Shown piece after piece: positions 10,846-64,000 of a stretch of 64,000 bases of DNA (position 1 is its first letter; each line of letters opens with the position of its first letter). Below the pieces are notes generated by a model that was given only the letters and a program-made list of their open reading frames with translations, was not told the DNA's origin and did no database searches. The stretch is from Obrimoposthia wandeli (taxonomy: Eukaryota): NCBI GenBank assembly GCA_977020255.1, contig CDROCS010002180.1:124001-188000 (forward strand), read 5' to 3'. A program made the position numbers and the translations under genes.

Positions 10846-10859
10846 GTTGCATCATTTTG

Positions 10860-12013: not shown

Positions 12014-12039
12014 CTTATAAATTTTAGTAAGCCGAAGTT

Positions 12040-14885: not shown

Positions 14886-15020
14886 TTATGCACAAAAGTT
14901 GCAAACATATTCAATATCAGGTTGTGTACACAATATGTCTGGCCACAAACTGCACTGGACCCATTCTTCACTGTTATTCTAAATTGCACATGGTTCTCAA
15001 GACATTGCAAACTACTTGTT
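14886..15020 (-). pseudogene. PHD-finger remnant like those at the C-terminus of pogo-like transposases
   Basis: LQCLE..[frameshift]..EEWVQCSL...LC...YVCNFCA*. Confidence 0.5.
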
Positions 15021-17849: not shown

Positions 17850-18230
17850 GTTCTTCCTTACATCTTTAATGATATATTTTTTATTGTTTGTTGTTGCACT
17901 TGATGCTTGAATTTTCGTTTTCTTCTATAAATTATTTCAAACAGTGAATAATATGAAGATTGTTGCATTTATAGAAAATTAAATTTGTGGCAATAAATCG
18001 TGCCAACATTTTCCTATTTTAGTATACACTAATGTTAATAAGATGTTGTTAGCTCCTGTTCAATACCAAATTTTCGTAGCCAATTCTGAAAATAATTTTC
18101 AGTAAATATTCGTTCTCTATTAAAATGGTCTTAGGTTTCCCAAATTTATATATCTAATTTGTCTCGAGTGCTTTAGTAATTGTTATTTCATCTTCTTTTG
18201 TAGTTCCTGATAGTGATACCAGTTTAAAAA
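17850..18230 (-). pseudogene. Gypsy integrase fragment
   Basis: YKFGKPKTIL...FTENYFQNWLRKFGIEQELTTSY across frameshifts. Confidence 0.6.
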
Positions 18231-18890
18231 ATTTCAAAAATTCTAAAAATAATTTTTCAAAATTTTAATACTTTAGAAATTTAAAAAAAATTTCACAAGA
18301 AAAGTTTTTACTCAGAGATATTTTAGAAATTTTACAAAAAAGACAAGACAAAATGGATACAAATATTTATTAGACAAAAGAGAAAAAATTAGGTACAATA
18401 AATTTGTGACATAAATTCAAATATACAGAAACAATCATTCAAGTGAAAAAACATCTGGATATCGGTGATGTCCGTAGGCAACTTACCGGTTTTTCTCTAC
18501 CAATTTTCTCTTATCATCATTGCTACTCAATGCGATCTTACTCATATTTACGGTATAGAGCTGGTGATTAATTCAACTAATGCGTTGTTGTTGCACTCGT
18601 TCAATAACCTAACTCATATTGCAGCTAAATAATGCACATGGCGTAGCGCAGTCTGTTTAAGGCTAATTCCCTTTGCTCTCATCTGGGACTATCCGTATAT
18701 TGTTTCTAAGCTATATGATTTCGGGCGTAAAAATACCCGTTACTTATATCTACAGACACCCTTACTCTAATCCTTAAACTTGACTATCGCAATATTGGCT
18801 AAAGTAAATAAAGGATAATTTATAGGGAGTTTCGATGTGTCTAATAACCCATCCGAAATCATTGCTGGTAACAGTGTAGCTAGCACATCT
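18230..18890 (-). mobile_element. Maverick-type pPolB 3' fragment; inverted paralogue of ~36200-36800
   Basis: Roughly 90% nucleotide match by eye to the reverse complement of 36200-36780, including KDE, KIALSSNDDKR and the downstream non-coding sequence. Confidence 0.9.
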
Positions 18891-19690
18891 AGTTTTTGTT
18901 GTTGCACATTTAGTTGTAAATGTTCGCTTAGCAGAGGGTTTGTGACCTCTAGAAAATGTATATGTTCGGCTAAAATCGTAGGGCTATTCTCTAGGGTTTT
19001 AATCGTCTACGTTTACTTTCAAAATAATTTTATCCGAATCAATATTTTATTATGATGACAAATATAACTAAAAATTATACTCAAAATCTAACCAATACGA
19101 ATGCCTAGTGGGCTATTTTTGGTTTACAGAACTGGCAATGTGGTATAAAACAAACATTCAGTTAAGGTGTTTGGTTCATTCCACATTGCCAGTTCTGCTT
19201 ACACAAATAAGATTTATTTCATTTCCATTTATTGTTGTAGTTTTTTAAAGTTTAAATTTATTTAATTTTTATTGCTTATATTAAGGCGGCATAAATTAGT
19301 TGATTTTTAAATGCGTCATTAATTTGTCGGACTGCTTAGCTTACCTGCAGATTTTGATACGGTAAATAATGATATTCTACTACGTGAAGTAAATAAGCCC
19401 TTAATGAGTCAGACGTCGTTTATAGAAAACAATTAGTGGTGATGGGAAGTATTTTTAAAAAGGAGTACTCTAAATTGTTGAAATCGTGGATTCATTTATA
19501 TGTTTAAATTATACTATTCAATTTTAGAAGATATTCAACAAACATGTACCTAAATTCCACTTTTATACTTATGATATTCAAATGTACATATAATTCGATT
19601 CGGAAGATAGTATTCGATTATTTGCTCAATTCGAAAACCATATGAATATACTGAAAAAATAGATTCTAAGAATTAAATGAGAGTAAAATA

Positions 19691-23590: not shown

Positions 23591-24370
23591 TTATATTAAA
23601 GTGCAAATAGGTCCAACATAATTATACTGGTTTTCAGTTTCAATTTCCTTCAAAATATCACCAATGCAAGGACAATAGCTTCTGTGGTAATGGTAAAGTT
23701 CGAAGAACTGTTTCTTCAATTGGCACAGAATCTGTGTAACATTTCTCAAAAAATTATCGTCACCAGTATCGGAATCCAGACAGTACTTGACAATCTCCTC
23801 CAAGCCCATATTCGTCCATGCCGGATCGAATTTGACAGCATTGTTTCCCTTGTAAAATGTATTTCTCGACAATTTATTTACCTCCCGCAAAGGTGCAAAT
23901 TCCGGTGCTACTATCAATTGATCTTCCATACCAACCCACTCTGTCACACGATCGTCCACAATCACGAACAGATCTAGCAGTTCATGAGGAAACATGGCTC
24001 GAAAATAATGGCTTTTATTTAGGTAACCCTGAAAATCTGACCGACAAAATATTCGATTGCCGAAGTTCACTCCTAGCGGATCGATAAACCCCAGAACGTA
24101 GTTCGCGTAATCGTGGGTACCCTTGGTAGCTACACATAACTCGAAATCGTCACTCAATTTTTCAATTGTCGTTTGCAAGAATGGCCTTTTCACTAACACG
24201 TCGCCTGTGTTTTGCTTGTTATCAAACTCGACGCGTTTGTTGCAGGTGTCAACCTTAAGATCAAAGATGTTAGCATAAGAAACTAAAGTTTCGTCAAGGT
24301 CCAGTATCAGAATCAACTTTTTATTTTCAATGTAATAAGACTGGCTATGAAAAAATTGCTGAGGGAGCAT
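23591..24370 (-). CDS. Intronless FCP1/CTDP1-like HAD phosphatase (FCPH domain only), copy A, 259 aa
   Basis: KKLILILDLDETL (DxDxT), KRP, ATKG, FGNRIFCR, NK, VDDR, DDNFL...FF; no BRCT; ORF intact. Confidence 0.9.
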   Translation of the reverse strand: MLPQQFFHSQSYYIENKKLILILDLDETLVSYANIFDLKVDTCNKRVEFDNKQNTGDVLVKRPFLQTTIEKLSDDFELCVATKGTHDYANYVLGFIDPLGVNFGNRIFCRSDFQGYLNKSHYFRAMFPHELLDLFVIVDDRVTEWVGMEDQLIVAPEFAPLREVNKLSRNTFYKGNNAVKFDPAWTNMGLEEIVKYCLDSDTGDDNFLRNVTQILCQLKKQFFELYHYHRSYCPCIGDILKEIETENQYNYVGPICTLI

Positions 24371-25272
24371 GCTGTATTTTGCTATGAATAATTTTAGTTT
24401 ATTTTAGATTATATGTGAAAATATTACTTCAAAAGTATTTAATAGAAAGGAATACATTATGTAATTTGTATTATAATATATTTCCCTAAAATATCTACGT
24501 CACCGAATGAAGATTAGTTACGTTTACTGTTGTTGGGTTTTTCTTTAAACTGTTTTTGAAGCCTCTCTCAATTGGGGTTTTCTGAAGGCTAAATTTGTTG
24601 TGTTGTGTGAATTTCTATGTAAAATGTGATAAAAATCGTAACACATTCAAAATCTGGTGTTGTGTAGAGCTTTGTTGAATAGTCGTTTAGGCGTATGAGT
24701 TAAGGCTTTAATAATAGTCTTGACTGTGATTAGGAGATTTGGACAAACCAAGAGCAATTTAGAGCCTGTAGCGTATAACGATTACTGTATGAGCTCTAAA
24801 CAACAAGAGTCAATGTCACCAAGTCACTACACTCACAGTAAGTGCAGATCCAAAAATGGCTGTCTAGTCCTACTAGTTGGTTCTTCTCGAATGAGTTGTT
24901 TTAAAATTTTAAGATTAAAATGATTAAAGTTTAGCTTATATCAATAAAATGCATAGACTATACTCTTCTACATTTGCTATTAAATTTTAACATTTTCTGT
25001 ATATTTTTCTGTAGTCAATTTGATGTCAATTTGGGTGAACAAAAATATATCAATAAATAAAATAAAAATCCATTTGATAAGTTATAAATACTCAAAATCG
25101 TCAACTAAAATGACAACAATTCTTGGTTTCTTAAAGTACCAATAGTTGCTCTTTTGGGCCCTTGCAGCTTATCCAGGTTCAGTTATTTGGATATATTGTT
25201 CTGTTTAAAAATCAAATATTGTAGCCACTCAAGAAGTGTAAAGTGTCGGTTCGAAAATAATAGCACACAAGG

Positions 25273-26769
25273 TGTTGGGGTTTCAATATGAAACTCTCAG
25301 ATAGATCCTCTGATGGAGGCCCCCAACGTGAGTTCTATAGACTTGCAATAGTTGTTTGTGGCCTACTTAGATTGTGCTTACCTGTCTCAATTCTTATCTG
25401 AAGGTTTGTTATGTCTAGGTGTTGTGAGAATGTAAAGACGCTGTTTAGTTGTAGGAAATCTTTATTCTTTAATACACTAGTTACGTTCTAAAATACGTTC
25501 TAAAAATGACAACAGCTAATCCTAAGTACTTTTCACAAAGTCTTTACACAAGGGGGAACGTTTCACGTAATGATTTTAATTGTTGGTTTTAGTTCAACAG
25601 AGTATTCACTCTAAAAATATAGGCGATGTATTTTAGTTAATTTTAGTAGAGTTATTTACTCTAAAATATGGGCAAGTTAGTTTGGTTTATTTTGTAGAGT
25701 ACTCACTCTAAAAATATGGGCGATGTAATTTAGTTAATTTTAGTAGAGTTATTTACTCTAAAATATGGGCAAGTTAGTTTGGTTTATTTTGTAGAGTTAA
25801 TTAATTCGCAACAATTATACTCTTTTTAATTTAATCAACGAAATTTAGAATACTTTTCTTTAAATTCTCTTAACTCAATCAACGAAACTCAAATACTTTT
25901 CTTTAAATTCTCTTCAATTCAATCAACGAAACGAAGTGTCCTCGGTCTGGCTGGTCTCGTACGGTCAAGTTGGCCTTCCAAGTGTTGTCCGTTAATATTC
26001 GTTCGCGCTCCTTCCCGTCTGAAAGTCGAAATAATAGTTGAGTCCTGAAGTCTGATTACCTTTTCTTTGCAATTTGATTGCTTCGTGCCTCTTCACGGAT
26101 AATGCGTATTTTCTGGTTTATATCGGAATTTTAGCTCAGTTTCTGTAATCCAAATTTCCGTCGCGCTCGGATTTTATTAATTAATTTAATATGTTGAAAA
26201 TTCCGTTTCTCGAATTCTGCTACAATTGTTTTGTCTTTAGGATCGGTATGAGTCTGTTCTGCTAACATTTTCAAAGTAATTTTCTTATATATTAAAATTT
26301 ACTTTCGATAAGAGTCGATGAGAAAGGCCTTTTTGTTGATCAGTCGAAATTCCTATGCGGCTAATTGACTCCTGTCTGAGCTCGTCGCTGAATGCTATTA
26401 TCGGCACTAAGTACTACCTGCTACTTGGCTCCCATTACGAATTTGTGATGCTGACTCCTCCTCAGCAGTGTCGTGATAATGTGCAGCTGATTCTTCCCAC
26501 ACTGAATTTGCTAATTATCCCTTCTTGCAGATTTCTTCTGTCTTCTTAATTAGCAACTTTAATAATTGAGATTCTTGGGGGCAATTTTGTAATTTTTTAA
26601 AATCCTTATATACTTACACAAGAAACATGACCTTTTAAGGTCCTAATTTTATTCAATCCCATTTTATTTACTTTACATTTTTTAATTATTTGTTTTCTTT
26701 TCTTTAACCTTACTTTCGAGGTTATCTTTCTATATATATATATTAATTAAATTTCACTAAATCCTAACA
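25273..26769 (-). mobile_element. ~1.5-kb solo LTR inserted in the Maverick TIR
   Basis: TG...CA ends; 4-bp TSD aagg (25269-25272, 26770-26773); one end matches the LTR end before the PBS at 49398, the other resembles the LTR start after the PPT at 48078. Confidence 0.9.
25590..25800. repeat. ~47/48-bp alternating tandem repeat inside the LTR
   Basis: agagt(a/t)tt(c/t)actctaaaa(a)tat(a/g)ggc recurs 4-5 times. Confidence 0.85.
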
Positions 26770-26849
26770 AAGGCACCCCCTAGAACAAGGAACGAAGAAC
26801 AAAGTACCTCTGAATATGCATTGGATACTTTAATACTTTATTGCTCTAT

Positions 26850-27430
26850 GTACTTGCTTGTTTAATTTCTACTCTCAGAAATAAGTAAAATTGTAGTAGT
26901 TGTGAGTGTATGACGTAATTATTTTTATCCTCATGGGTCATCAACAGTTTTGAAGCTTTTGAGCCTGATGGGAATTCTATATTAGGCGTAATCGGTAAGT
27001 CATCATGTTTATCATGGATACTAATAGGTATGTGTAAATCAACCTCCAACAAGTATCCATGTTCTTTAAGACTTAAGTTCTGCATATTACCGTGAATATC
27101 CCTCTGTTAAAAGCTCATTTGTCGCTTCAAAACCGTCATATACCCATGTAATATCTGTATGAGGTAACGGTTGACCAGCCATATAGGTTATTGATGTCAA
27201 TGTATATGAGGAATGTTTCATCTGTTGTTTTAACGTAATGTTTGTTGATGAAAGTAATCCCTGTCCGGATCCCCGCCTCAAACATGTTATACATTTCGGG
27301 ATAATGTAATAAATCCACGTCATAACGTTTTTAATGCACTAGCCCGGCAGAAATTGAGAAATTGGGCGCCTCTAGATTATCACCATCCCTTACTTTCTGT
27401 CTAAAGGTCTCAAAAACATCACATAACAAA
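26850..27430 (-). pseudogene. Protein-primed DNA polymerase B (Maverick/adintovirus type), central fragment
   Basis: DVFETFR, GIRTGITFI, YIDINNLYG, YLLEVDLHIP..IHDKHDDLP, KLL...DKNNYVIH. Confidence 0.9.
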
Positions 27431-27961
27431 TACAATCATAGCATTTTGTGCATATTGTGGGTGGGTTTCAACTACAGTATTATTTATTGTTATATCTTAT
27501 ATTGTTAAATATACATACAAGAACATGTTTGAACTTGATATTCAAAATTGTAGCGGTCAAATGTGTAAAAATCATTTAAATGATTATACCGTAACAAATA
27601 TATATTTTTGCTTTAATTTTCAAAATGACTACTATATCATTTTTGATATTTTAATTTAATTTTAGTTTTAATTTTAATTTTCAAAGTTTACGCAAAATTT
27701 GATATATGTACATAATGTCTACGTTAATTTGAAATTTGACACAAGTCCAATCTCCAGGCTGGAATACGTAAAGTGTCGGTTCTAAAACAATAGCACACAA
27801 AGCACCCCCTAGAACAAAGTACCTCTGAATATGCTTTGTATTTTCTGAGGTATTTTGTTCTTCGTTCCTTGTTCTAGAGTGGATTTGTGTGCTATTGTTT
27901 AAGAACTGACACTTTACACTTCTTACTCATTATCACGCTTTTTAGGATTCGATCCCCTTGA

Positions 27962-33968: not shown

Positions 33969-35062
33969 TTCAACGTTAATAACATCATCGTCATTTGCAC
34001 TCGGCCATGAGCTGCACGAGTTTTACTCGTTCTTTCAATGAAAACATTTCCAATCTATAAATAAGTAAAAAGCGTCACATGAGTGTATAATTTTGATGTA
34101 TTAGTTCTGTAAATATAAATTTTAATTAAATATTTTATTGCGTTTTCAAATAGGAAAGTGACTTTTATGACCTCCAGTATCATGACTATTTTAAAATTTA
34201 TTTCCGTAAAAATGTCGCCATATGCGTAATAACAATACATTTTTGGATACAAAACTACGAACATCAGAGCTAAGTTCATATATGATGTTTCAAAGTTTAG
34301 CACATTATCTGGAAACTGAGAAGTTGATCTTGATGGTGGATCTCGACGAGACACTGCTTTGCAGTGCTGATCTATTTGACCTTGACGTCGTTATCAATGA
34401 CAGGGAGGGTGTGTTTATTAGCAGAAGTGATAACCACCAGACAGTGACTGTGTTGCGTCCTTTCATGGCGGACAGTCTCTGGCAGCTCAGCCAGCATTTT
34501 GAGCTGTGGTTGGCCACAAACGGTGGACGGCAATACGCTATGAATATGTTGAAAATCATCGATCCGAATGCTGACCTATTCGGAAACCGGGTGTTGACTC
34601 GCTCGGATTTCGGGGCCAAGCAAATGAATAAGATGCAAGCAGTGGAAAGGCTTTTGCCACACGAGCTCAGGAAAATTGTTGTAGCCCTGGACGACAGACT
34701 GGACGTGTGGAGTAACTGTGAGTTTGTGCTACAGATAGCTCCGTTCTCGCCGCTGGTCAAACTGAATAGGGAGATTATGAACCGGTTTCTGAACACAAAC
34801 TATCCGGTCTTTCTGGAGCCAGTCTGGCGCCAACTGTCGCTGCAGGACAAGCTCTACCACTCTCTGAACGATGAATGCTGCAGCCAGGACAGATTCCTAC
34901 TCCATGCTACCATGAAACTAGTCAGTATGAAGTGCGCCTACTTTGATCTGGTGAGGCGTCAGCAAAACGAGCTTCCTTACGTAAGCGACTTCCTGATAAA
35001 TGTGCAATGATAATTATACATTTAGTGTACTTTCATATTTTGCCTCATTTAACTACAATTTC
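33969..35062 (+). repeat. Segmental duplicate of 46303-47396 (contains the FCP1-like gene)
   Basis: Collinear at a constant 12334-bp offset, roughly 95% identical by eye. Confidence 0.95.
34282..35010 (+). CDS. Intronless FCP1/CTDP1-like HAD phosphatase, copy C (ORF open from 34222; MMFQ start preferred)
   Basis: KLILMVDLDETL, VLRP, ATNG, IDP..LFGNRVLTR, NK, LDDRLDVW; GC-rich part begins near 34282; no BRCT. Confidence 0.9.
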   Translation: MMFQSLAHYLETEKLILMVDLDETLLCSADLFDLDVVINDREGVFISRSDNHQTVTVLRPFMADSLWQLSQHFELWLATNGGRQYAMNMLKIIDPNADLFGNRVLTRSDFGAKQMNKMQAVERLLPHELRKIVVALDDRLDVWSNCEFVLQIAPFSPLVKLNREIMNRFLNTNYPVFLEPVWRQLSLQDKLYHSLNDECCSQDRFLLHATMKLVSMKCAYFDLVRRQQNELPYVSDFLINVQ

Positions 35063-35639
35063 CTAATCTGCAATCCAATGAAATTAAATTTTGTAGACAA
35101 ATATGACACTCGCTTTAGTATATATCGTTGTCACTATTAAGCATTTACCAATAATATACAAAAGAGTTACAAATATATTTTTTTGTTTACTATCTATATT
35201 CTATTAAATGTATTGTTTCTATATTCTATTACTATTGTTAAGATTAGAAATTGATATAAAATAAAATAAATTAACTATTATAGGAAGAAAGTGAATCTTG
35301 AATAAAAGGTTAAAATTAATAAAATATTAAAATTGTTTAAGAAAATATCTAAAATAAAATTAGGACCTTGAAGAGGTCTTGTGTGTTGCTTTATGTGTAT
35401 AAATAATTTTATTAAGCGGGCAGTAGGGGGAAGTGGGTCTCAAAAAAAAATCTTAAAAATTTCAAGAAAACTTAAAACTTTCAAAAAAATAAATATTATA
35501 ATTTTAAAAAAATAAATTTTTTACAGAAAATAAAATTGTTTACAAAATTTATTATAGTTTAAAAATAATATTTAACACATAATTTTTTACAATATTTTTT
35601 AAGTTTAAAAAATATAATTTTACACAGAACTTTTATACA

Positions 35640-35811
35640 AGGAAAGAAACATTAATGAAATATTTTAAACAGACAAATAAAATTATCAAAGAAAATATTC
35701 AGAAAGGTGGAAAAGTTTTAGTATGTGGTCATTATGGAATACATACTGCTGTAGGAATTGTTATAGCCTACTTATCTCTTTCTATGTCTGTTAGTGCTGC
35801 TAATGTTTTTG
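35640..35811 (+). pseudogene. Dual-specificity phosphatase-fold fragment, STYX-like (Gly at the catalytic Cys position)
   Basis: YFKQTNKIIKENIQKGGKVLVCGHYGIHTAVGIVIAYL, compared with the STYX-type GGKVLVHGNAGISRSAAFVIAY. Confidence 0.65.
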
Positions 35812-36664
35812 CAAAGTATATTGAGGATAATTCCGCGAAAACGGCTAGTTATTCGAGAATATTATTAATTGAATGTTAATTATCTGTTTGGTAAGTTAAT
35901 AGAGAATTTAATGAAGAGAATTAACCTCCGTATTTGTAATACGCCACAAAAGCTTGTTACCTATTGTAGTAAGGCCCAATTCCGTAGGACGATGGAAATC
36001 GACACAAACGTAATAGCTGTTTTACTAAATATGCAAAATGTCGTTTTAGATCGTCCTAGTTATATTGGTCAGGCAGTTCTGGATTTACGTAAGTTAAGGA
36101 TGTATGAGCTTCAATATGTTCAATTAGAGAAATATAGATGTCAGTTTAATTGCGACATTCGAATAATTGCTGGTGACACTGACAGCTTTTTTCTAAAGTG
36201 TGGTAATGTAGATGTACAAGCTACACTGTTGCCAGCAATGATTTCGGTTGGGTTATTAGACACATCGAAATTCCCTATAAACCATTCTTTATTTACTTTA
36301 GCCAATACTGCGATAGGCAAGTTTAAGGATGAGAGTAAGGGTGTCTGTAGATATAAGTAATGGGTATTTTTACGCCCCAAATCATATAGCTTAGAAACTA
36401 TAGACGGAAAGTCCCAGGAGAGCAAAGGGAATTAGCCTTAAGCAGACTGCGCTACGCCATGCGAATTATTTAGCTGCATATATGAGTGGGGTTAGTGAAC
36501 GAGTGCAACAACAACGCATTAGTTAAATTAATCACCAGCTCTATACAGTAAATATGAGTAAGATCGCATTGAGTAGCAATGACGATAAGAGAAAATGGGT
36601 AGAGAAAAACCGGTCAATTGCATATGTACATCACCGATATCCTGATGTTTTTTCACTTGAATGA
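35812..36664 (+). pseudogene. pPolB C-terminal third (Maverick/adintovirus type)
   Basis: LFGK..EN, SYIGQAVLDL.KLRMY, AGDTDS, GKFKDE, RPKSYS, KG, ALSSNDDKR; has a stop and frameshifts. Confidence 0.95.
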
Positions 36665-36779
36665 TGGTTTTTGTATGTTTGAATTTATATGTCACAAATT
36701 TATTGTACCTAATTTTTTCTCTTTGGTTAAATAAATATTTGTATCCAATTTGTCTTTGTCTTTTCTAAAGTATAAAAAT

Positions 36780-37045
36780 TCAGTGTAAAATTTTAATTCT
36801 AAAGTATAAAATTTTAATTCTAAAGTATAAAAGTTCTGTGTAAAATTTTATTTATAAAGTTTAAAAATTCTGTGTAAAATTTTAATTCTTAAGTATAAAA
36901 TTTTAATTCTAAAGTATAAAATTTTAATTCTAAAGTATAAAAGTTCTGTGTAAAATTTTATTTATAAAGTTTAAAAATTCTGTGTAAAATTTTAATTCTT
37001 AAGTATAAAATTTTAATTCTAAAGTATAAAAGTTCTGTGTAAAGT
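36780..37045. repeat. 21-bp (aaattttaattctaaagtata) and ~110-bp higher-order subterminal repeats
   Basis: Seen directly; aagttctgtg at 36831, 36941 and 37030. Confidence 0.9.
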
Positions 37046-38247
37046 TATATTTTTAAACTATTAAAAAAATTGTAAAAATTATGTGTTAAATATTATTTTT
37101 AAAGTATAAAAAATTTTGTAAACAATTTTATTTTCTGTAAAAAAAAATTTTTTTTTAAATTATAAGATTTTTTTTTTGTTGGAAAATATTAAGTTTTTTA
37201 TCTGAAAATTTTAAGAAAATTTGATTATTAAAACAAAATTTTGACCTTGACACGTGCCGTAGTTGCCACGGCAACAATACGTACATGTGGCAAGTGCCAT
37301 GACACGTTCCATGGTGTGTACGTGCCATGACACATGACTTGTTGCTAGGGTCTTCTGGCTGACTTGCACACAGGGCGGGGGGTGAGCCAGAAGACTCACT
37401 TCCCCCTACTGGAGGCCAAGAAATAAATAGTAAGACAAAATAAAAGTAAGAAGAAAATAACTTAATTGGAAATCAGAAAATTATAATTGAAAAGACACTA
37501 AGGAAAGGAAAAAGCAGCAATTAAATGAAGCGCGTGAGAAAATCTTCACCTGGGACTAAGTGCAAATAAAAGGAAGCACTCAGACAGTGCGTAAGAAAAT
37601 TAACAGAAAAATCGCCAGCTTTAGTCGATGAGCAATATCTCTGGGCGGAGAGTGATAATGTTTGTTCGAGCGTGTGTGTGTGTTTTTTGAGTGGAAAATC
37701 TCATACACGCAGATTTTTTTCTGGCCAAGCTCATTTTAAATCTTCTCGAACAATCATCGAGCTTCTGCTGTGTCTGTGTGTTCCTAATAGTGAGGAAGTT
37801 TCCACGAAAGTCTATTAGTGGTCGTAAGGTAATTTTATATAGTACTAAGTTATTACAGAACTGTATTTGAAATTTCAGAAAATTCAATAAGAAACACAGA
37901 AGTAAATGATTGTATATAATTTGATCAAAGATTTGATTTGCGTATTAATTGGAATAATTAGGAACAAGATTTGGAAGAAGAGTAGCGTAAATTTTGATAA
38001 TTAAAATCTGATTTTTAGAACTGTATTATATTCAGAATTGAATTATCTCAAGTTAAACGGATATATATTGACAGGAGCACAAGTGAAAATTGGAAAATTG
38101 TTGGAGGAACTTGGATTACATTTTAGACCATATTATTATAATGATTTGAACCAAATCAGGATATTAATTTGAAACTGGTGAGGCTAGTAGAGATTTGATT
38201 TGCGTATTAATTGGAATAATTAGGAACAAGATTTGGAAGAAGAGTAA

Positions 38248-43900: not shown

Positions 43901-44410
43901 TTTTTTAATTTATGAAACATTTTGTACTGTAACTTCTTTAACCCTTTATGAATTGCATTAAAAAAAGTATGATAACAAATCAATAGTCACCTGACAAGCA
44001 TACAAATAGTTGTTTTTGAAAAGGTTTCTGTGCATAGTTTTTTAAATCATTAAAGTTTGTCACATTTTCTAGTTGCAAAAATATATTTAAATTTAATCTA
44101 ATGTACCGAGAATATATTAGACACGGTACATTAGATTAAATTTCATTCATCATGAGTAAGGACTGCAAAAAATGTTAAACATTTCGAAAAGAAATTAAAA
44201 TTGTTAAATTATTTTATTACTATTGTCTTTGTTTTAAAATATGAAAAAAATGAATATATTTAAAATCTGTCTCTAAGTACATATTTTTTAAATTTAGCAA
44301 AGAGCAGAAAACAATTGAATAATTATGAGCTTATATGATGTTAATTGTGCGAAGTAAACAATATTTTTAAAATTCAGGTTATGAATAGTTAATATTCAAT
44401 TACTCTAAAA

Positions 44411-44733: not shown

Positions 44734-45866
44734 CTCTAAAAGATTAAAATTGTGTCAGGAATATAAACTACAAAAATTGTTATATAAATAAGATAAAAAA
44801 TCATAAAAATGACCAAATATATATTTAAATTTTATTCCAATTTATTAAATTGTGTGAACAGCACTTTAGCAATGTTAGATTCACTGAGTTGCATCATTTG
44901 ACTGAAAAAATAAGCCTATATTTTGAAAAGGATCTTTCCACATCAGCTCTAGTTAGTGGAAGAAATCGTAATTTGATCGTTCTTTTTACAATCATGGTAT
45001 TTAATCTTCTCAAATTTGGCTTTTTATTTATAGCTCATTCTAATTTCTGTAATTTCTGACTAAAATTATCATCAGTCCAAAATATGAAGAACTCAGAAAG
45101 TTCCTGAAACCCGAGATCTTCGAGTTTTATGACACTAAATACCTACAATTCTATATGACTCCAGAAGTAATATTTCAGTAATATCTTGTTGAAGACTTTG
45201 AAATAACTTAAATTGTTCACAAGTAGTGTAAAGTGTCATTTCTCACACATAATCAGATCCTTGGCACAGACGCCCCTGATGAGTTATATGCTGATCTGCG
45301 AGAATTCGGGATTTCTTAACAGCTGCAACAAAGTACAAGTGACTTGACCTTTGTTCGCCGCTAATAAGGAATCCTGCATTTATGCACTTAAACACACAAC
45401 TCATCGGGGGCATCCCGGCTAAAGATCTGTTTATGGGCACCTTACACTACTTATGAACAATTAAAGTTTTACAGGAACATTGAATTTTAACAAACAGATT
45501 ACCATTCAAAATCATTCATTTTTATTGATTATTACAGAAGTTGTTCACTATAATTGTACTTACAGATGCAATACAAACCGGATGCAATTACAATACAAAA
45601 ACATTTAAATACTAACAAGCGCAAATGCCTACAATCCTAACTTCCTTGTGTATGATATATATTACACTAATGATTTCTGATTCCTATCAATTACCCCACT
45701 TGTCAAAGTATAACAGGCTAACTCCATTTTGTCTAACCCTTAGGTTTGGTTTTCATTCCCAGTAACCCAAAGTTCCTGAATAGTTGATGTTTCCTGCGGG
45801 AAGACTTTTCAACCAAATTTGGATATTGTCGGTGAATGAAATTATGAATAAAGGAATCATCATCTA
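44549..45866 (+). repeat. ~1.3-kb segmental duplicate of 52884-54200
   Basis: Collinear match starting inside the hAT MITE and spanning the micro-element. Confidence 0.95.
45222..45451. mobile_element. 230-bp micro-element with AGTAGTGTAA(A/G)GTG Maverick-like termini
   Basis: Terminal sequence is nearly the same as mini-Maverick 1; GC-richer interior; no direct TSD. Confidence 0.6.
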
Positions 45867-46302: not shown

Positions 46303-47396
46303 TTCAACGTTAATAACATCATCGTCATTTGCACTCGGCCATGAGCTGCACGAGTTTTACACGTTCTTTCAATGAAAACATTTCCAATCTATAAATAAGT
46401 AAAAAGGGTCACATGAGTGTATAATTTTGATGTATTAGTTCTGTAAATATAAATTTTAATTAAAGATTTTATTGCGTTTTCAAATAGGAAAGTGACTTTT
46501 ATGACCTCCATTATCATGACTATTTTAAAATTTATTTCCGCAAAAATGTCGCCATATGCGTAATAACAATACATTTTTGGATACAAAACTACGAACATCA
46601 GAGCTGAGTTCATATATGATGTTTCAAAGTTTGGCACATTATCTGGAAACTGAGAAGTTGATCTTGATGGTGGATCTCGACGAGACACTGCTTTGCAGTG
46701 CTGATCTATTTGACCTTGACGTCGTTATCAATGACAGGGAGGGTGTGTTTATTAGCAGAAGTGGTAACCACCAGACAGTGACTGTGTTGCGTCCTTTCAT
46801 GGCGGACAGTCTGTGGCAGCTCAGCCAGCATTTTGAGCTGTGGTTGGCCACAAACGGTGGACAGAAATACGCAATGGATATGCTGAAAATCATCGATCCG
46901 AATGCTGAGCTATTCGGAAACCGGGTGTTGACTCGCTCGGATTTCGGGGCCAGGCAAATGAATAAGATGCAAGCAGTGGAAAGGCTTTTGCCATACAAGC
47001 TCTCGAAAATTGTGATAGCTCTGGACGACAGACTGGACGTGTGGAGTAACTGTGAGTTTGTGCTACAGATAGCTCCGTTCTCGCCGCTGGTCAAACTTAA
47101 GATGGAGATTATGAACCGGTTTCTGAATACAAACTATCCGGTCTTTCTGGAGCCAGTCTCGCGCCAACTGTCGCTGCAGGACAAGCTATACCACTCTCTG
47201 AACGATGAATGCTGCAGCCAGGACAGATTCCTCCTCCATACTACCATGAAACTAGTCAATATGAAGTGCGCTTACTTTGATCTGGTGAGGCGCCAGCAAA
47301 ACAAGCTTCCTTACGTAAGCGACTTCCTGAAAAATGTTCAATGATAATTATACATTTAGTGTTCTCTCATATTTTGACTCATTTAACTACAATTTC
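46303..47396 (+). repeat. Segmental duplicate of 33969-35062
   Basis: See partner copy. Confidence 0.95.
46616..47344 (+). CDS. Intronless FCP1/CTDP1-like HAD phosphatase, copy D
   Basis: Same motifs as copy C; ORF intact; about 17 aa differences from C by manual count. Confidence 0.9.
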   Translation: MMFQSLAHYLETEKLILMVDLDETLLCSADLFDLDVVINDREGVFISRSGNHQTVTVLRPFMADSLWQLSQHFELWLATNGGQKYAMDMLKIIDPNAELFGNRVLTRSDFGARQMNKMQAVERLLPYKLSKIVIALDDRLDVWSNCEFVLQIAPFSPLVKLKMEIMNRFLNTNYPVFLEPVSRQLSLQDKLYHSLNDECCSQDRFLLHTTMKLVNMKCAYFDLVRRQQNKLPYVSDFLKNVQ

Positions 47397-53556: not shown

Positions 53557-53786
53557 AGTAGTGTAAAGTGTCATTTCTCACACATAATCAGATCCTTGGC
53601 ACAGACGCCCCTGATGAGTTATATGCTGATCTGCGAGAATTCGGGATTTCTTAACAGCTGCAACAAAGTACAAGTGACTTGACCTTTGTTTGCCGCTAAT
53701 AAGGAATCCTGCATTTATGCACTTAAACACACAACTCATCAGGCTAAAGGTCTGCTTATGTGCAAGAAGTGACGCCTTACACTACT
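53557..53786. mobile_element. Second copy of the 230-bp AGTAGT-ended micro-element (inside the segmental duplicate)
   Basis: Same termini and flanks as 45222-45451. Confidence 0.6.
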
Positions 53787-55234: not shown

Positions 55235-55800
55235 ATTGATTTTTAATCACTATCTATCATTACCTAATTTCTATACACTCTCTCTTACTCATTAACTCGA
55301 GGAATCACTCACTCACTTTCTCAATATCTATCATTCCCTAATTATTATACACTCATTCTCAATCATTAACTCAAGTAGTCACTCACTCACTATCATTCAC
55401 TAATGTTTATACACTCACTCTCACCCATTAACTGGAGTAGTAGCTCGCTCACTTCCTCACTACCTATCATTCCCTAATTATTATACACTCACTCTCACTC
55501 ATTAACTGGAGTAGTAGCTCGCTCACTTCCGCACTACCTATCATTCCCTAATTATTATACACTCACTCTCACTCATTAACTGGAGTAGTAGCTCGCTCAC
55601 TTCCTCACTACCTATCATTCCCTAATTATTGTACACTCACTCTCACTCATTAACTGGAGTAGTAGCTCGCTCACTTCCTCACTACCTATCATTCCCTAAT
55701 TATTATACACTCTTTATCACTCATTAACTCGAGTAGTCACTCACTCACTTCCTCACTATCTATCATTCACTAATGTTTATACACTCACTCATTCACCCAT
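55235..55800. repeat. 74-bp minisatellite (~8 copies), probably 3' of the cullin-5 stop before the Maverick insertion
   Basis: attaact at 55427, 55501, 55575, 55649 and 55723, with degenerate outer copies. Confidence 0.95.
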
Positions 55801-56375
55801 TTCGTCGCTTTCATTCAATCGGTCATTCAATTAGTATATAGTGTGGGTACCAACACTATAGTCCTTAAAAACGTCTAAATGTCGAAAAAGTACTCAAAAT
55901 TACTCATCAAGTCCTGAAATCAGGCATACTAATTCAAGGCAATAGGTCCCCTGAGGAGGTACCTTTTACTACAAAATCTATTTGAGCCAGTATGCGTTTT
56001 TTACAGACTTATCCAAAATTTAATCACGAAATCGCGCATAATAACTCAATTCAATAGACCTCCCCGGGGTACCCTTTGCTGCAAAACTATTTTTAACGTA
56101 GTATGTACGATTTCAAGTATTTTTTTAAAAACGCACTATTTCTCACAGATTAAAACAAAATTAGTTTAAGTAAATGATTTTAAGTGACCAAATTCTCCTA
56201 AGAGAGGAGTCCTTCACCCGAAGACCGGGAAGCACCTTTGACAAAGAATATATTTAGAATACTTTTGTTTATAGAAAAAGTATTATATACAAGTGAATGA
56301 ATAATAATAATATACAAATTATGATATACATTAAATAACAACAATAACAAAACTATATATTTTATTTAAAAATTA

Positions 56376-58630
56376 TTAAGTTAAATTAAAATGACCATAA
56401 GCAAGGCTTTTGTTCTTACTAAACCATCTCATTTTATCGTCAAAACATTTTAAAGCAACTTTAGAGGTAAATGTTGTATGAAGCTGATGGTTAACCGATG
56501 CTATACGTGACTGGTTAACACTAATAATTTCTTCATTTTCATAACAATTGAGGTAGTCTTGGTGTCTTAAATTAGTTTGTTTTAAAGAAATACCTTTAGC
56601 CCTTAATTAATTTTGAAGTGAATAACATTTTGGTTTTAACAAAACTCACTCATTATAATCAGTACCCTCACTTTCATCTTTAAATTTTCCAATTACAGAT
56701 TTAAAGTTTTTTTAATACAATGTATGTGTTTTAGTGTAATTACTCGAAATAAATACCCATCCTTAATCATTTCGTTGAGTAATTTATCCTTATCAATATT
56801 CAAACACTCAAGGAAATAAGAATCAGTGTCCATAGTTACAATTCGAAAACTACAATTAAAAGTTTGCCTATACCGTTCAAGCTCAACATATTGTAATTGA
56901 TACATTCGTAATTTAGATAGATCAAGTACAGCTTGGCCGATATAGGAAGGCCGATCTAAACAAATTTCCTGTTTCTGCATAAAAACTAAATTTAAATCAT
57001 CATTTATTTGACTATGACGTTTAAACCAAGGAAACGAAACTAAGTTTTAAACCCGTTTATTGTTATTACATAATCTAATATCAAGCCGCATCTTAAGATT
57101 CTCAACCGTTTTACCGAAAACGGAATTATTTTTAATTTGTAAAACTCATATTAAAACTTATTAACACTAGTTGCCCGTTTGTTTGAATTAAAATCTATTA
57201 TTGTTTTAAAACGGGCGCTTGTCTAAACCGAATAGCCCTATGAATTTTCAAGATTTCAGCACGATGAAAAACATAGAATTGTAGTAAACGAAAAGAGTAT
57301 TACATAATGCTCTTTATCATTATGTATTAAAAGTAATTTAGGAGTTTTTTAGTTTGGTGGACACATTTTATGTGGTTCAATAGGTAAGTCATCAACTCTA
57401 TTATGTATACGATCCGGAATATGTAAATCTACTTCAACAAGAAAAATCATGCGGTTTTACTCAAATTCTTTTCACTTCCAACTAAATTCAAAATATCATC
57501 AAAATTACGATGATACAGTTCGAAAACCAAAAAGACATTTCTGACGTCAGTAAAGGCGTAAACCATAGCTATGACAATTAAATAATCTATTTAAATGAAT
57601 ACCACAATAATGATAAGTGTTACGGTCTTCTAACAAAAGTAAATTAACAATTTGATTACAATCCCGTAGTTTTATTCGGTAAATTATACTAAAATCAGGA
57701 TTTTTCACCACATCTTTAATCGGGTATTTACTTTTAATTTCAGAAAACTGTAATTGCTATATGGTTATCACGTTCAAATTGAGGTATTGAGGCTAAGGAC
57801 ATAGGACCTGGTGGACATATTAACTAATTTAAATATTGATCATATGAAGATGATCAATCTCTATTTTGAACTTCATTATGTTTTAAAACGCTAAGGATAG
57901 CCTAGAGAAAACATTTGTTATCCTCGTTTCTTACATTGATTATTACCCTTTTATTTAAAAATTTAAGTGGTGATGGTATATATGAAGAACCTGAAACACT
58001 AGATAATTTAGTTAATTTAAAGGAAATTTGTAATATTTTATGGATTGACCAACCACCATTCAATTCCGAGAACTATTCAATACAATTATTTAACTTGTCA
58101 GTTCTAATAACAATAAAATCATCATAGAAAACATCAGCCTTATAACTAATATGTCATATTTTAAATTGGTTTTCTATGTTTACAAATTGAGCTTGAATAT
58201 CAAATTGGATTTTACAAGGTCAAAATGGATTAATTTTATTTAATAACTCATTTTTCATATCATTATTAACAACCAGTTTTAGCATATTCTGGTTAGATGC
58301 AGTATCAAAAATAAGATTATCTTGAAGTGCACCACCATTTTGAGTATCATTATTTGATATTGCTTCAAGGCCTACAGTTTCTAATAATTCATTATAAAAT
58401 TCATCAACAAATGGATTTGCATGTGTATAAAGTAAATCATTAAAACCTGGAGATTCATTTAAATACTTATCTAATTCATTATCCTGGAAATCATTTAAAA
58501 ATGTAGTGAAATCAAAAATATTATTAAAACTATCAACTGGTATTATATTATTAATTGTTTCTAATTTTATAACTTTATTACTTTTTGATGATTTACGCTT
58601 ATAATTTGATTTCTTGATATTAAAATAAGT
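56376..58630 (-). pseudogene. Protein-primed DNA polymerase B with internal deletion
   Basis: SGSSYIP...IINVRNEDNKCFL; EVDLHIP; YKLKNNSVFGKTVEN; SYIGQAVLDLSKLRMY; MDTDS; FKDE; KPKCYS; AKGI; ALKCFDDK. Many stops; no exonuclease-region motifs recognised. Confidence 0.95.
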
Positions 58631-59007
58631 GATTTTTATGATTAGAATAAAAATCTAAATATTTTATGTTTGTGAACAATATATCACCCGAGGGACATAT
58701 GTACCCGTTTTTAAACTTATAATATTTTTTCATAACATCATGAAAATTACTAGTACAATAGTTATAAAGTTTACATGGTAGGGAACCACAAAAATTTAAA
58801 AAAACACACTAATTAAAGCGTCATTAAACAATAAATCACCTAACCTATCATCAAAGTTGAATGATGTACATAATCGACTAAAATATAATGTTCGGGTTCC
58901 ATATATTTAGTAAATTTTCAGTCTTTTATCAGAGCATCTTGTGAAATTTTAAAAACTTTAAAACAATTTGTGTTAATATTCATTAAACGATCATTATAAC
59001 TAGAATT

Positions 59008-59221
59008 AACACCAAACATTTTAGGAAAAACAGTGACAACTTGTGCTTCGTCATATAAGACATCGCTAACCTTGTCACAACAATTAAAAGACTTCCCATT
59101 TTGTTTAAAATATAATTTGCGTGAACCAAACGCAATATAAATTTTTTCAGTCAGGTCTCTAATCAGGTCCAATTTTTATTTGCTTAACGGAATGCAATAA
59201 ATCAGCATGAATTGTTAACTG
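59008..59221 (-). pseudogene. Ubiquitin-like domain (one frameshift) inside mini-Maverick 3
   Basis: QLTIHADLLHSVKQIKIGP[frameshift]DLIRDLTEKI..FG..KLYFKQNGKSF...VSD....AQVVTVFPKMFGV. Confidence 0.55.
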
Positions 59222-59993
59222 TTCTAGCTCCTTTTTAGTTTCTTTCTTTTTAAAGCGTCGTTTCAGCTTATTCTTAAGGCGCTTACCCCGTTTACCTAAC
59301 ACTTTAACTTTGGTTATTGATTCAACATTTATATTATCTCGTGCATCACGATGATAATTTTTGTATGGAGTAATCCCGTTTACTAAAATGACTTAAATAA
59401 TTAAAAGGATACGTGTTTGGGCTGCCTATTGATGTAACATGATAAGGTTTTTTAAATGAAAAATATTAAGTGTTGTTATTGTAAGTAGATGATAACACCT
59501 CCATTACTCCTAAAGCTGGGAGCCATTATCCGAAGACAGGGCAGTGTTACCATTACCTCTTAGGAGGCTCCGTACGGGAGACTTTGGTCACTTAAAATAA
59601 TTTACTTAATCTAATTTTGTTTTTTAACGATAAATAACGCGATTTTTGAAAAAATACTTGAAATCGTGTATACTACGTCAAAAATGGTTTTGCAGTAAAG
59701 GGTTAGTATGCGCGATTTCGAGACTAAATTTTGGTCAAGTCTGGAAATCACGCATTCTGCCTCAAATAGATTTTGCTGTAAAAGGTATCCCCTCTGGGGG
59801 ACCTATTGCCTTGAGTTAGTATGCGCGATTTCAGGACTTGATGAGTAATTTTGAGAACTTTTTCGCCATTCTGTCTACATTTAGACGTTTTTAAGGCCTA
59901 TAGTGTTGGTACCAACTAAAAGGAACAGAGCCTCCTGGGAGCTTTGTTCCTTTGAGTTGGTACTGACACTATATACTACTCAATCACTCACAT

Positions 59994-60315
59994 TCAGGCA
60001 ATATAGATAAAGACGCTGGAGTCAGAGGGATCTCTCCGGATGTATTCTTCCTCTATCAGCCAGTCCAGAACCTCCTTTATCAGCCTCTGGCTTGGCTGGA
60101 ACAGATTGCGTAGCAACGTCAGCAGCTCGCTACACAGCTCGGCGTGTCTAAGACGCCTTCGCGACTTCATCAGCTTTATTATGCCTTCCTGTGTCCGGAA
60201 CTTGCGTAGTTCTACAATCGCGCTTTCGTCTTGTTCCTGTGTCTTCTTGTCTAGCGACAGCGGCATCCGGCCGATCAGGTTCAGCTTGCCTCGATTCTGC
60301 AGTCGACCTTGCTTC
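59994..60315 (-). CDS. CUL5: Cullin-5, last coding exon (winged-helix/neddylation domain)
   Basis: QNRGKLNLIGR...LRKFRTQEGIIKLMKSRR...KEVLDWLIEEEYIRRD....FIYIA*; ctgtag acceptor; phase-2 join to the upstream exon restores ...FCLVKQG. Confidence 0.93.
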
Positions 60316-60802
60316 CTACAGACAAGTAGCAACTGGGTCACAGGGTCATTCGCACGTGCATTTGTCCACGAGACCACATTCAAGAAAATAGGACAAACCG
60401 CACTTTTTAAAACGTAATCTTATTTATCGAGTGGCGTTTTGAGAAAACTGTTCTGAACTTTAGTAGCTATTTAGAATGCTACTTAAATTGTCATCAATTG
60501 CTAATAAAAATGCAGCATAAGAGCAAATTATCAAAGTAACAAAATAAAATCCAAAAACATAACATTTTTATAGAACCCAATCTTTTCTTCTTAATTAGTG
60601 TCGATGAAACCTCTCTAATTTAGGCAGCTTTTACATTCTCATTAGTTACTGAAACTCTTTAGAATATGAAAACCTTTATTGAAAGCTGAAGTGACCATAT
60701 TTAATAGTATCAATTACTTATAGAAATAGTTAATTGTGTAAACTTATATTTGTATATTTTTAATGAAAATCCCATTTATTAAACAATTTCTATCCCCTAC
60801 CT

Positions 60803-61913: not shown

Positions 61914-62032
61914 ACGAGACAGAACTTGTGGTTAATGTAGAACTCTGTACTGTCGCTGAATTCTTCCGGGGATTTGGCACGCGGTTCGTACAGCAAGATC
62001 TGCTGTTCCAGTTTGCCATGTTCACAGAGACT
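61914..62032 (-). CDS. CUL5: Cullin-5, penultimate coding exon (119 nt)
   Basis: ttttag|SLCEHGKLEQQILLYEPRAKSPEEFSDSTEFYINHKFCL(V)|gtaagt, resembling the CUL5 segment SLVAFPKLKRQVLLYEP...; earlier exons probably lie beyond the window. Confidence 0.92.
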
Positions 62033-64000
62033 CTAAAAGTTCAATTTGGCCGTTACCGTATTTCTCCGAATGAAAGTCGCAGTTCAATCAAAACTTCCCA
62101 AACACTAAAAGTGAATAAAAGGTATGTCAAATGATTAAAATATAACATACAATTACATGGCTTAAAACAGTTAATTGAAATGAATCTGCGTGATAAATGT
62201 TTGTATGTTATTCCAGTTGATAAAAGCTCCTACATGATCTTAAAATATCCTTAGACTAATTGACAATAATGAGGGACATATATAGGCAATGGGCTAGAAC
62301 CCCAATGCCTGTCTAAACAAATAAGTGTTTCTCAGAAATTACACATGGCATTCACCAATAATTGATCAACGTTTACAACAATTTTTTGATTACCGAATCA
62401 TACTTTTGTCCATTTTAGAGAGATTATCTTGCAAACAGGACAAAGTCTTAACCTCTTATATGGAATTAGGAAGAATGCTCTTCGTGTAACGATGGATGTT
62501 GTTTCCATTGATTAATCAGCCAAATCACAGTATCTTCGTGACAATTAAAATCTTCACAAAACGAATTTATAAACTTCATTTCATTTCTTCAGCCAGCATT
62601 TTAATAATGGAAATTATTAGAATTAGTGATTGTTTTTAAGTATATGCTTTTTTTACATTCTTTATTTCTTGTGTAAATTCAACCTTTATCATTAAAATAA
62701 TTTCAAAAGCAGTACATGTTGCTAAAATTGATAAAGTAAGTGCCATTCAGAAAGAATTGAACTCTGTACATAATATTTTGAACCTATCATTTTTAAACTT
62801 TTCCATCGACGAAACCTTTTGGATTTAGTAGACAATCTCACTAAATTTGCAAGATTGTCGATTGTGCCAAATTGTTAGAATTATGTATTTAAAAATTCTT
62901 GTGGCACGTGAAAGATCACTGAAAGCTAGAGAAAAATAAAAAATGAAAATATAATCTATTATGACTTTTATAAGAAGTTTAAATGAATGATTTTTCTGAC
63001 ATTAAACTGTTTTTATAAAGATTAGGATGACTCATTTTATAAAACAATTTTTAATGATATTTGCCACTATAATATTAAATCATTTTATTTTTTGTCATAA
63101 CCCTAATTTACAGACATAAATTAAGGTAATGAAAAAAATGTGTAAACTTGTATTTCAATTACTGATTTTATAAATATAAAAATACAATTTAATTGATATA
63201 AAATAATTAATTAACTATTTTAAATTTTATAAACGTTTGCATTAAAAATCATTTGGGACAATTTTCATGGATTCAGAAAAAACATACATTTATTTCTTTG
63301 ATGGACCTTTTTTCTTTTAATTTTTATAGAAACTCTACTATTTATGTCGCAAAAAATAATACGGAATGAAATATAAATAAAAATAAAATTAACATATATT
63401 TAATAAAGCGCTCATAAATATATGATTTTTTCCTCAGAAGTTTTGAAGTTCAACATCTTTATGAATTTTTCAACACTCTTACAGTTTATAATATCATCAG
63501 TAAGTTGTTGTAAAGATTCGAAACGTAAATTTCGAATATCCCATCCATTTGTTTGTTAGGTGAGAATTTGTTGACCAATCTGCAGTCGTTATTGTTGTTC
63601 CTACGATATTTTGCTCACTGCACTAGTATCGAGAAAATCATATAAATATTTGGGCTTCTGTGAGAGAATGCAGTTTGTAAAATGATATCAAATCAATTCT
63701 AGCGCTTAGAGTAAAATTTCATAGATTTATTAGATATTAGCTCTATATTATTGTTATTTATATAAAAAAAGAATGCGTTATAAGATAATATTTAAGAAAA
63801 TATTATTTTAAAAATTGTAAAATGTTAATTTTAAAACAATCCAATTACATTATCTTATCAACTAAACATAAACCAGTTCAGCGGTAATTTCCACGTTAAT
63901 ATGTGTAATACACGTTGTGTATTCTGGATGACAGCAGATTCTAATTAAAATATTTCGAAACTAAAAATGCATTACATATTAAATAAAGGTTATTTTTATT

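Follow-up and report, generated by a model that had tools for sequence, protein, structure and literature searches.

The interval 55830–59980 of the window (the whole 64,000-nucleotide stretch of Obrimoposthia wandeli DNA analysed) is almost certainly a decayed Maverick/Polinton remnant of 4.15 kb, and its right end carries a 75-bp subterminal hairpin that we lean towards regarding as a putative functional, cis-acting end element. The element is a remnant copy belonging to an abundant, high-copy Maverick family. Its decay and the deletion at its left end are ordinary; the hairpin is of more interest than that deletion because such ends have been reported mainly in related viruses without pPolB.

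The element was delimited by its TIRs and target site. The left TIR (369 bp; 55830..56198, forward strand) begins with ATTAGT and the right TIR (404 bp; 59577..59980, reverse strand) with AGTAGT, giving the end motif (AGT)2//(ACT)2 exactly at the right end and with one mismatch at the left; contigs place the right terminus exactly at 59980. An earlier note on this DNA had described the TIRs as collinear for about 350 bp. They are collinear, but not gap-free (gaps of 51, 11 and 27 bp, plus four of 1–4 bp), and differ by 35 substitutions in 338 aligned columns (10.4% divergence; K2P 0.112). The putative TSD copies CATTCA (55824..55829) and CAATCA (59981..59986; both forward strand) match at 5/6, as that note had it, and the left copy terminates a tandem repeat with a 74-bp period. 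Taken alone, this match is weak evidence, its chance being 0.8% window-wide versus 5.8% in the local repeat (in the tandem-repeat flank on the left, 36 of 625 positions agree with the right 6-mer in at least 5 of 6 letters). To the right lies a host gene outside the element, cullin-5-like, represented by the C-terminal part of its coding sequence (59994..60316, reverse strand; Cullin-5 match, 5' limit approximate); its stop codon is 13 nt from the right terminus, and the nearest AATAAA beyond it on the gene's strand stands at 59180.

Mavericks/Polintons, reportedly the subject of Kapitonov and Jurka in 2006, share with the element (AGT)2//(ACT)2 ends, a protein-primed PolB and TIRs several hundred bp long, and have a 6-bp TSD like the putative one here; in the accessible parts of their descriptions the majority of genomic copies are likewise degraded fossils. 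The element differs in its length of 4.15 kb, in lacking a detectable integrase, capsid, ATPase or protease, and in a TIR that opens with a 75-bp hairpin. The available text of a vertebrate Maverick survey gives (AGT)2//(ACT)2 or (AG)3//(CT)3 ends with a 6-bp TSD (PMC8097293).

The coding remnant is a Maverick protein-primed PolB (56388..58733, reverse strand), recognised by similarity to a 1242-aa relative and collinear with it in blocks corresponding to residues ~1–38, 143–415 and 869–1226. Its identity was taken from a homologue search, since Pfam scans of the broken frames (stops read as X) returned no PolB family. That search yielded 380 relatives, the best 57–60% identical over the best block; PF03175 was present in most, and PF02945 was also found among them. 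A PolB profile gave no match to solved structures, and a single-protein scan found no relatives in viral contigs. The deleted PolB of the earlier note was borne out by an internal gap of ~450 codons (57445..57519, reverse strand), which takes in the endonuclease-VII-like domain of the relatives. Equally, neither integrase nor virion genes were detected: no rve integrase was found in the element by Pfam or other searches, and Pfam, PHROGs and 864 non-PolB ORFs from 89 related loci gave no match to a capsid, packaging ATPase or protease, a search that is weak for divergent capsids. Upstream of PolB, two stretches free of stops, 77 and 85 codons long (58921..59392, reverse strand), had no relative among 1.84 billion representatives (0 matches) or 37 candidates (0/37); atlas scores did not exceed 0.84, and one PHROG was hit at E 0.01. 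The earlier note had named the element a mini-Maverick. For a mobile class of that kind no 4.15-kb copy of the same structure was found, and the PolB is broken by 16 stops and at least four frame switches. With no integrase found, the element is classed as a deleted remnant and not as an autonomous member of the Maverick family.

The right-end hairpin was confirmed by fold calculation at 59899..59973 (75 bp, nt 8–82 from the terminus; −26.1 kcal/mol with DNA parameters, z −7.9). None of 200 shuffles was equally stable, and 3 of 6392 sampled 82-nt windows folded at least as well. The palindrome is imperfect, with a loop of 5–9 nt. In the one element that allows the comparison, a 13-nt bulge lies in the outer arm at both ends, with no flip seen (n=1). 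CpG decay was considered as the source of the arm mismatches and dropped on the CpG observed/expected ratio (0.96 in the element, 0.87 in the window). A self-complementary word in each arm gives the two arms an 8-bp direct repeat in common, GTACCAAC. Counted from the right terminus, its outer copy stands at nt 18 (59956..59963) and its inner copy at nt 69 (59905..59912; both reverse strand), 51 bp apart.

The left end reads as the earlier note gave it, a 24-bp palindrome with one mismatch (55837..55860), which is what remains of the hairpin after loss of its interior. The 8-bp repeats invoked for this deletion are present; its size is 51 bp, not about 52 bp. The breakpoint is not fixed within the repeat, as had been suggested, for placements outside GTACCAAC at nt 13–16 fit better (3 mismatches) than those inside it (4 mismatches). 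Contig evidence, from four runs of one sample, bore on which end is older. In all four runs, contig depth was 15–19 times higher in the bin containing the long hairpin than in the bin of the left end, and 101 contigs (run X2) continued past 59980 into unlike flanks, with agreement of 0.4 behind that position. By this evidence the long hairpin is more likely to be the usual form in the family, and the long end is very probably ancestral and the short end derived, the direction proposed earlier. It is highly improbable that the short end is original and the long one gained 51 bp by insertion or duplication, with 8 bp of target duplicated, or that the short end is an assembly error: the flanking 8-bp repeat can be read as a TSD and no contig covered the short end (55830–55891) among the matches listed, but contigs of the family accumulate at the long end and stop at 59980, where many flanks begin, the hairpin of a related element is longer and shares the motifs at base and apex, and the adjoining part of the left TIR is confirmed letter for letter by a 288-letter contig (55892–56179, 0 differences). 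No 51-bp skip was seen among the 15 contig joints listed (300 more lie beyond these), and no contig spanned the whole element among the matches listed. One contig departs from the window sequence beyond 57507. The depth minimum, at 59390–59533, adjoins the right TIR, as would suit one decayed copy or a subfamily of few members.

The short end had been attributed to cruciform collapse, a reading that the product does not single out: the palindrome is imperfect with a 5–9 nt loop, and slippage or microhomology break repair yields an identical product. Imperfect arms and loops of this size disfavour cruciform extrusion. A bypassed hairpin, or repair on microhomology, is the probable origin of the deletion in preference to a true cruciform, and slippage past a single-strand hairpin is a more likely route than cruciform collapse. 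The accessible part of PMC4948707 describes palindrome-stimulated slippage as well as deletion by cutting and annealing, and cites Bzymek and Lovett 2001 for deletions that take out precisely the interior of a hairpin between short direct repeats, the outcome found here. As far as that text goes, there is no essential difference from palindrome-stimulated deletion; the repeats here derive from the self-complementary word that the arms contain.

The explanation that we somewhat prefer as a whole joins decay, end deletion and a hairpin acting as an end element. A Maverick inserted itself in a tract of tandem repeats, 13 nt past the cullin-5-like stop codon, apparently making a 6-bp TSD; decay would then have removed most of the body and the ~450 PolB codons whose gap is visible, together with integrase and virion genes, as the family suggests. 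In the family the TIR opens with the palindrome, beginning 7 nt inside the AGTAGT terminus. At the left end, the inner stem may have folded on a single-stranded template and been skipped by slippage, leaving the product described above; alternatively it may have been cut out and the end rejoined on the 8-bp microhomology, taking off 51 bp. The hairpin would fold on a displaced single strand and be recognised by the element's own replication or integration proteins, and the free AGTAGT tip would still be available for priming by a terminal protein and for processing by the integrase. For Mavericks generally, exit from the chromosome and the onset of replication are described by a model only, that of a panhandle and a terminal protein.

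Hairpins at other ends were compared with this one. A second TIR element in the window (25232–27923) has a hairpin at 27768–27917, with four two-sided changes in 18 basal pairs relative to the right-end hairpin. The outer nucleotides are unpaired in both elements, the last 6 in the second and the terminal 7 (59974..59980, forward strand) in the first. The base motif is common to three independent window loci (9 matches versus 0.88 expected, with a pattern drawn from those loci), and AACAAAG or its complement, a word chosen after the fact and occurring at 0.31/kb in the window, lies near the apex at all three. Hairpin lengths range from 75 to 230 bp. The 230-bp palindromes of the window are gene-less, with a fully paired tip; one of them reaches 17 bp past the AGTAGT motif on both sides. 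In the fetched loci, 1 of 11 putative Maverick ends had a hairpin: locus L043, an independent PolB+rve Maverick whose terminal hairpin of 84 bp (z −8) leaves no base of the tip unpaired. The hairpin is thus dispensable for Mavericks in general, the other 10 putative outside ends lacking it. The element's PolB and that of L043 are separate in a PolB tree (74 rows, 123 columns), with which a single origin of the hairpin in both may nevertheless be compatible.

Several further candidates were set aside. An end-motif scan of viral contigs gave 8 loci, none with a terminal hairpin fold, and these were taken as chance; a paired-terminus scan gave 114 loci, none with a PolB match, the best folds reaching −24 kcal/mol. 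Contigs L052 and L065 have palindromes at their extreme ends that may be assembly artefacts, and that of L078 lies outside its terminus. Nor was an association of the EndoVII-like domain with hairpins seen: the domain was matched in 9 of 9 PolBs scanned, including all 6 scanned PolBs with hairpin-less putative ends.

Telomeres of parvoviruses and poxviruses are imperfect terminal hairpins of 75–150 nt, in which a paired 3' end primes synthesis and flip and flop forms occur. The element resembles them in having an imperfect terminal hairpin of similar size and differs in its unpaired terminal 7 nt; as to flip and flop, the one element that allows the comparison has the same orientation at both ends (n=1). 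Priming from a folded 3' end as in these viruses, with the hairpin or four-way junction reopened by a nuclease, possibly the endonuclease-VII-like domain of PolB, is distinctly unlikely here. Such priming has been proposed for virophage and PLV ends in the accessible part of 10.64898/2026.07.28.741278, the L043 end is paired to its last base, and every scanned PolB has the EndoVII-like match. In both window elements, however, a conserved tip would need to be trimmed before the 3' end could prime, and of the ends compared, those of L043 and the 230-bp palindromes alone have a paired 3' terminus; the bulge sits in the outer arm at both ends, without a flip, in the one element that allows the comparison, and the EndoVII-like match recurs where putative ends lack hairpins. 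In the part of PMC11161782 available, such nuclease inserts are read as homing-endonuclease or intein invasions.

The hairpin could also be a functionless by-product, formed when a nicked end folded back and was copied, the palindrome having since been carried by TIR copying. This is rather doubtful. Its patchy distribution (1/11 outside ends) and variable length would suit such an origin, as would the overshoot of AGTAGT by the 230-bp palindrome, which is expected of fold-back copying, and accidental annealing is offered as an alternative in the accessible part of 10.64898/2026.07.28.741278. Against it, the arms change in step across two diverged families, the apical motif is common to three hairpin lengths, and the long form has been kept across a large family though it is deletion-prone. 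Two-sided stem changes can, for their part, arise without selection when one arm is copied onto the other, and the free-tip geometry is not constant, the tip being fully paired in L043 and the 230-bp palindromes. A functional end element remains our preferred reading. Unlikely, in our estimate, is a joint version in which several pPolB+integrase lineages use folded ends, a hairpin or four-way junction formed after TIR pairing a few bases from the tip, as an origin or excision signal that is processed by the endonuclease-VII-like domain of their PolB and can on its own mobilise gene-less palindromes like those of 230 bp in the window. A palindromic end module makes the two ends direct repeats as well, and within this joint version the element body could be released as a circle.

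No description of terminal hairpins in pPolB Mavericks was found in the literature, and the supplement of the 2026 preprint 10.64898/2026.07.28.741278 may list pPolB cases; 'palindrom' is absent from the available text of PMC8097293, and both 'hairpin' and 'palindrom' are absent from a nematode Polinton preprint and an adintovirus paper. In its accessible part, 10.64898/2026.07.28.741278 describes terminal palindromes in Halocafeteria seosinensis virophage subtypes 1, 2, 5 and 6 and PLV subtype 4 as 'preferentially associated' with non-pPolB replication genes and calls for a wider survey. Those palindromes, like the present ones, lie within TIRs beside a TSD and are comparable in size (subtype 5, 52 nt). 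They differ, as far as described there, in belonging to mainly non-pPolB elements of a protist, where the present hairpins are on pPolB Mavericks of what is probably an animal, two of which leave the tip unpaired. Family 1 casposons are also self-synthesizing, with pPolB and internal palindromes in some TIRs, and are prokaryotic, use a Cas1 integrase and are unrelated by descent, according to the available part of PMC4046053. With hairpins present on pPolB Mavericks from two lineages far apart, the link between palindromes and non-pPolB replication becomes weaker. A free tip of 6–7 nt and a fully paired tip make opposite, testable predictions, protein priming and self-priming respectively, and the very large family, with natural end variants that include the left-end deletion, allows a computational test of whether hairpin-less ends spread.

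The TIRs also vary internally. The left TIR contains two sub-repeats of ~105 bp (55895..56114, forward strand), and the number of units differs between family copies, contig joints showing skips of 92–104 bp at the homologous place in the right TIR.

The Maverick/Polinton remnant at 55830-59980 ended on the right in an imperfect 75-bp hairpin (59899-59973; nt 8-82 counted from the terminus at 59980, the outermost 7 nt being unpaired). Folded as DNA, this hairpin had a stability of -26.1 kcal/mol (z -7.9; equalled in 0/200 shuffles), and just 3 of 6392 sampled 82-nt windows were at least as stable. The left end (from 55830) was reduced to a 24-bp palindrome with one mismatch. The flanks CATTCA (55824-55829) and CAATCA (59981-59986) formed a 5/6 target site duplication (TSD). 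The architecture recorded in the earlier note is real and was mostly correctly described. Matches of 5/6 arose at 0.8% of window positions and were frequent in the left tandem repeat (36/625 positions), so the TSD backs the element boundary only weakly.

In a global alignment of the terminal inverted repeats (TIRs; 55830-56198 and 59577-59980), 35 of 338 columns were substituted (16 by transition and 19 by transversion; p 0.104, K2P 0.112). The TIRs were collinear across these columns, as claimed, but with gaps of 11, 27, 4, 2, 1 and 1 bp beyond one of 51 bp in the left copy. The latter matched the spacing of two GTACCAAC words (8 bp; nt 18 and nt 69 of the right end), which exist as direct repeats because each hairpin arm holds a self-complementary word. 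The proposed loss of ~52 bp between repeats therefore stood in its spacing and was corrected to 51 bp; its breakpoint was not exactly placeable, the best fit being at nt 13-16, outside the repeat (3 mismatches, against 4 within it). An imperfect palindrome such as this one, with its loop of 5-9 nt, folds easily on single-stranded DNA and extrudes poorly as a cruciform. Cruciform collapse, the route first suggested, is possible but unneeded, since single-strand folding is favoured and two other routes, slipped mispairing past a hairpin and cutting then annealing, are described (PMC4948707, available portion). The deletion product cannot separate these two routes. Both the decayed copy and its 51-bp deletion are ordinary.

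With a 153-codon query in which stops were read as X, 380 of 589 candidates proved to be relatives (best 57-60% identical), most with PF03175 (DNA_pol_B_2) and many also with PF02945 (endonuclease VII). The PolB remnant (56388-58733, minus strand) covered residues ~1-38, 143-415 and 869-1226 of a 1242-aa relative, with 16 stops and at least four frame switches. As had been noticed, it was internally deleted: ~450 codons were missing between 57444 and 57520, and the EndoVII-like domain (residues 543-582 of the relative) fell inside this gap. Two stop-free stretches upstream of PolB (59392-59162 and 59175-58921, minus strand) were without relatives. Among 864 ORFs of 89 related loci, matches to the element were confined to PolB; integrase and virion genes were therefore undetectable at the sensitivity of this comparison, in agreement with the initial reading, and the element, with no detectable integrase or capsid gene, is classed as a Maverick remnant. 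Further PolB C-terminal fragments were present at 35854-36634 (within 35451-37216) and 18465-18907 (region 18229-18891); these two regions were 87% identical in inverted orientation. Both had tandem arrays of 21/34 bp in addition to AT-rich inverted repeats, and in neither was the AGTAGT motif present.

A cullin-5-like coding stretch (within 59981-60316, minus strand, as PolB; best match Cullin-5, E 1e-28) was followed by the element 13 nt past its stop codon; an upstream exon was recognised by eye near 61915-62105. A Cullin-5 gene suggests that the host is an animal. The intact hairpin faced this gene, and a predicted read-through transcript would have a 3' UTR opening with an RNA hairpin of -44 kcal/mol. 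Three intronless NIF/FCP1-like phosphatase ORFs were also found (23591-24370, 34222-35010 and 46556-47344), two of them within a 1.1-kb segment repeated at 96%.

A second Maverick remnant (25232-27923; AGAAGT ends, 5/6 TSD) carried PolB pieces of the same kind (26825-27591) and, from nt 7 inward, a hairpin of 150 bp (27768-27917); its left TIR was interrupted by ~1.5 kb of other DNA. The hairpins of the two elements showed four simultaneous two-arm differences in 18 basal pairs. Two gene-less 230-bp palindromes (45222-45451 and 53557-53786) had the same base and end motif and an apical AACAAAG, their inverted symmetry extending 17 bp more at either side; both lay inside a 1.3-kb segment that recurred at a distance of 8.3 kb (94%), and represent one event, duplicated. 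AACAAAG or its complement, a motif chosen post hoc (window rate 0.31 per kb), occurred close to the apex in all three hairpin types. The hairpin is a lineage feature. That folded ends are processed origins, able to mobilise gene-less palindromes too, is unlikely. The TSDs of the two elements were alike (CATTCA/CAATCA; CACTCA/TACTCA at 25226-25231 and 27924-27929), a possible target preference in two cases. Additional strong hairpins were located at 19127-19197, 44089-44143 and 415-614, the last including near-perfectly paired 66-bp arms (453-587).

Four public sequencing runs, all of a single sample and perhaps those from which the assembly was built, contained the stretch, and run contigs were aligned to the window at 80% likeness (8,000-15,000 records per run). 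One run (X2) yielded a contig that matched 55892-56179 without a difference, at a depth of 47. Over the interior, summed contig depth, which is not copy number, ranged from 4,000 to 390,000, and the family is clearly a large one. At least 101 X2 contigs continued past 59980 into dissimilar sequence (agreement 0.4), fixing the terminus at 59980 and indicating many insertion sites. The long-hairpin bin (59822-59965) had 15-19 times the depth of the short-end bin (55790-55933) in 4/4 runs, both bins being wider than the hairpin, and no 51-bp skip appeared among the 15 joints listed (there being 300 further joints). At least 71 contigs departed the right TIR before 59556 into sequence resembling, by eye, 56198-56250, which makes the right TIR the better match for the PolB-side ends of other copies as well. 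We read the long hairpin as the family norm; no piece among those listed covered 55830-55891. At 3/4 comparable TIR positions the left TIR agreed with other copies and the right differed, and both ends thus have private changes. Because depth was lowest at 59390-59533 and one contig was unlike the window past 57507, multiple copies of this exact structure, which the earlier note had proposed to look for, were not established. TIR sub-repeat number varied among copies, contigs skipping 92-104 bp at 59699-59805 in many variants.

A profile of 25 relatives retrieved 75 metagenome and 14 viral loci. In eleven (one duplicate left out; two pairs near-identical), an inward-pointing end motif lay ~350 nt or less from the contig end, giving putative ends without TSD confirmation. 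Ten were without a terminal hairpin; the eleventh, metagenome contig L043 (2-5177; PolB 2-2965, rve integrase 2925-4064, AGTAGT end at 5177), had one of 84 bp (z -8.0), paired up to the final base. In the block compared, its PolB was 43% identical, and it fell outside the well-supported clade of the element; among the closest relatives no contig extended to a terminus. The short tree is compatible with one origin of both hairpins. It is tempting to see the EndoVII-like domain of PolB as a resolvase, but a match was present in 9/9 PolBs scanned, six of these from loci with hairpin-less putative ends, and such inserts are interpreted as homing nucleases in the available part of PMC11161782.

According to the same source, polinton protein-primed polymerases (pPolBs) have a terminal-protein domain that serves in priming. 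Together with the tandem AGT tip retained in the element and the unpaired tip of both TIR elements in the window, this favours a hairpin that would serve as a folded or dyad recognition element next to a protein-primed origin, a reading we moderately prefer. A functionless fold-back by-product is unlikely. Hairpin priming, in which the end self-primes replication, is ill-suited to an unpaired tip and quite improbable; it is offered, beside accidental annealing, for palindromes within TIRs adjoining TSDs in Halocafeteria virophages and one PLV subtype, which are "preferentially associated" with non-pPolB replication genes (10.64898/2026.07.28.741278, accessible sections). Some casposon TIRs likewise contain internal palindromes (PMC4046053, in the part available), and Mavericks of a vertebrate survey resemble the element in end motif, putative 6-bp TSD and prevalence of degraded copies (PMC8097293, excerpted). 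The terms "hairpin" and "palindrom" were absent from the text of 10.1101/2023.08.22.554363, PMC8502044, PMC8363768 and 10.1101/2025.02.07.637071, and the available portions of PMC6431247, PMC3014272, PMC11296320, PMC12747079 and PMC12220804 held nothing on Maverick end hairpins; a literature search, with the founding papers and Repbase outside its scope, returned no description of terminal hairpins in pPolB Mavericks. The hairpin-capped TIR on pPolB Mavericks is a new version of an architecture that was first reported recently; it offers a testable handle on replication start or excision. LTR retroelement fragments (reverse transcriptase and integrase) were also present at 8989-10855.
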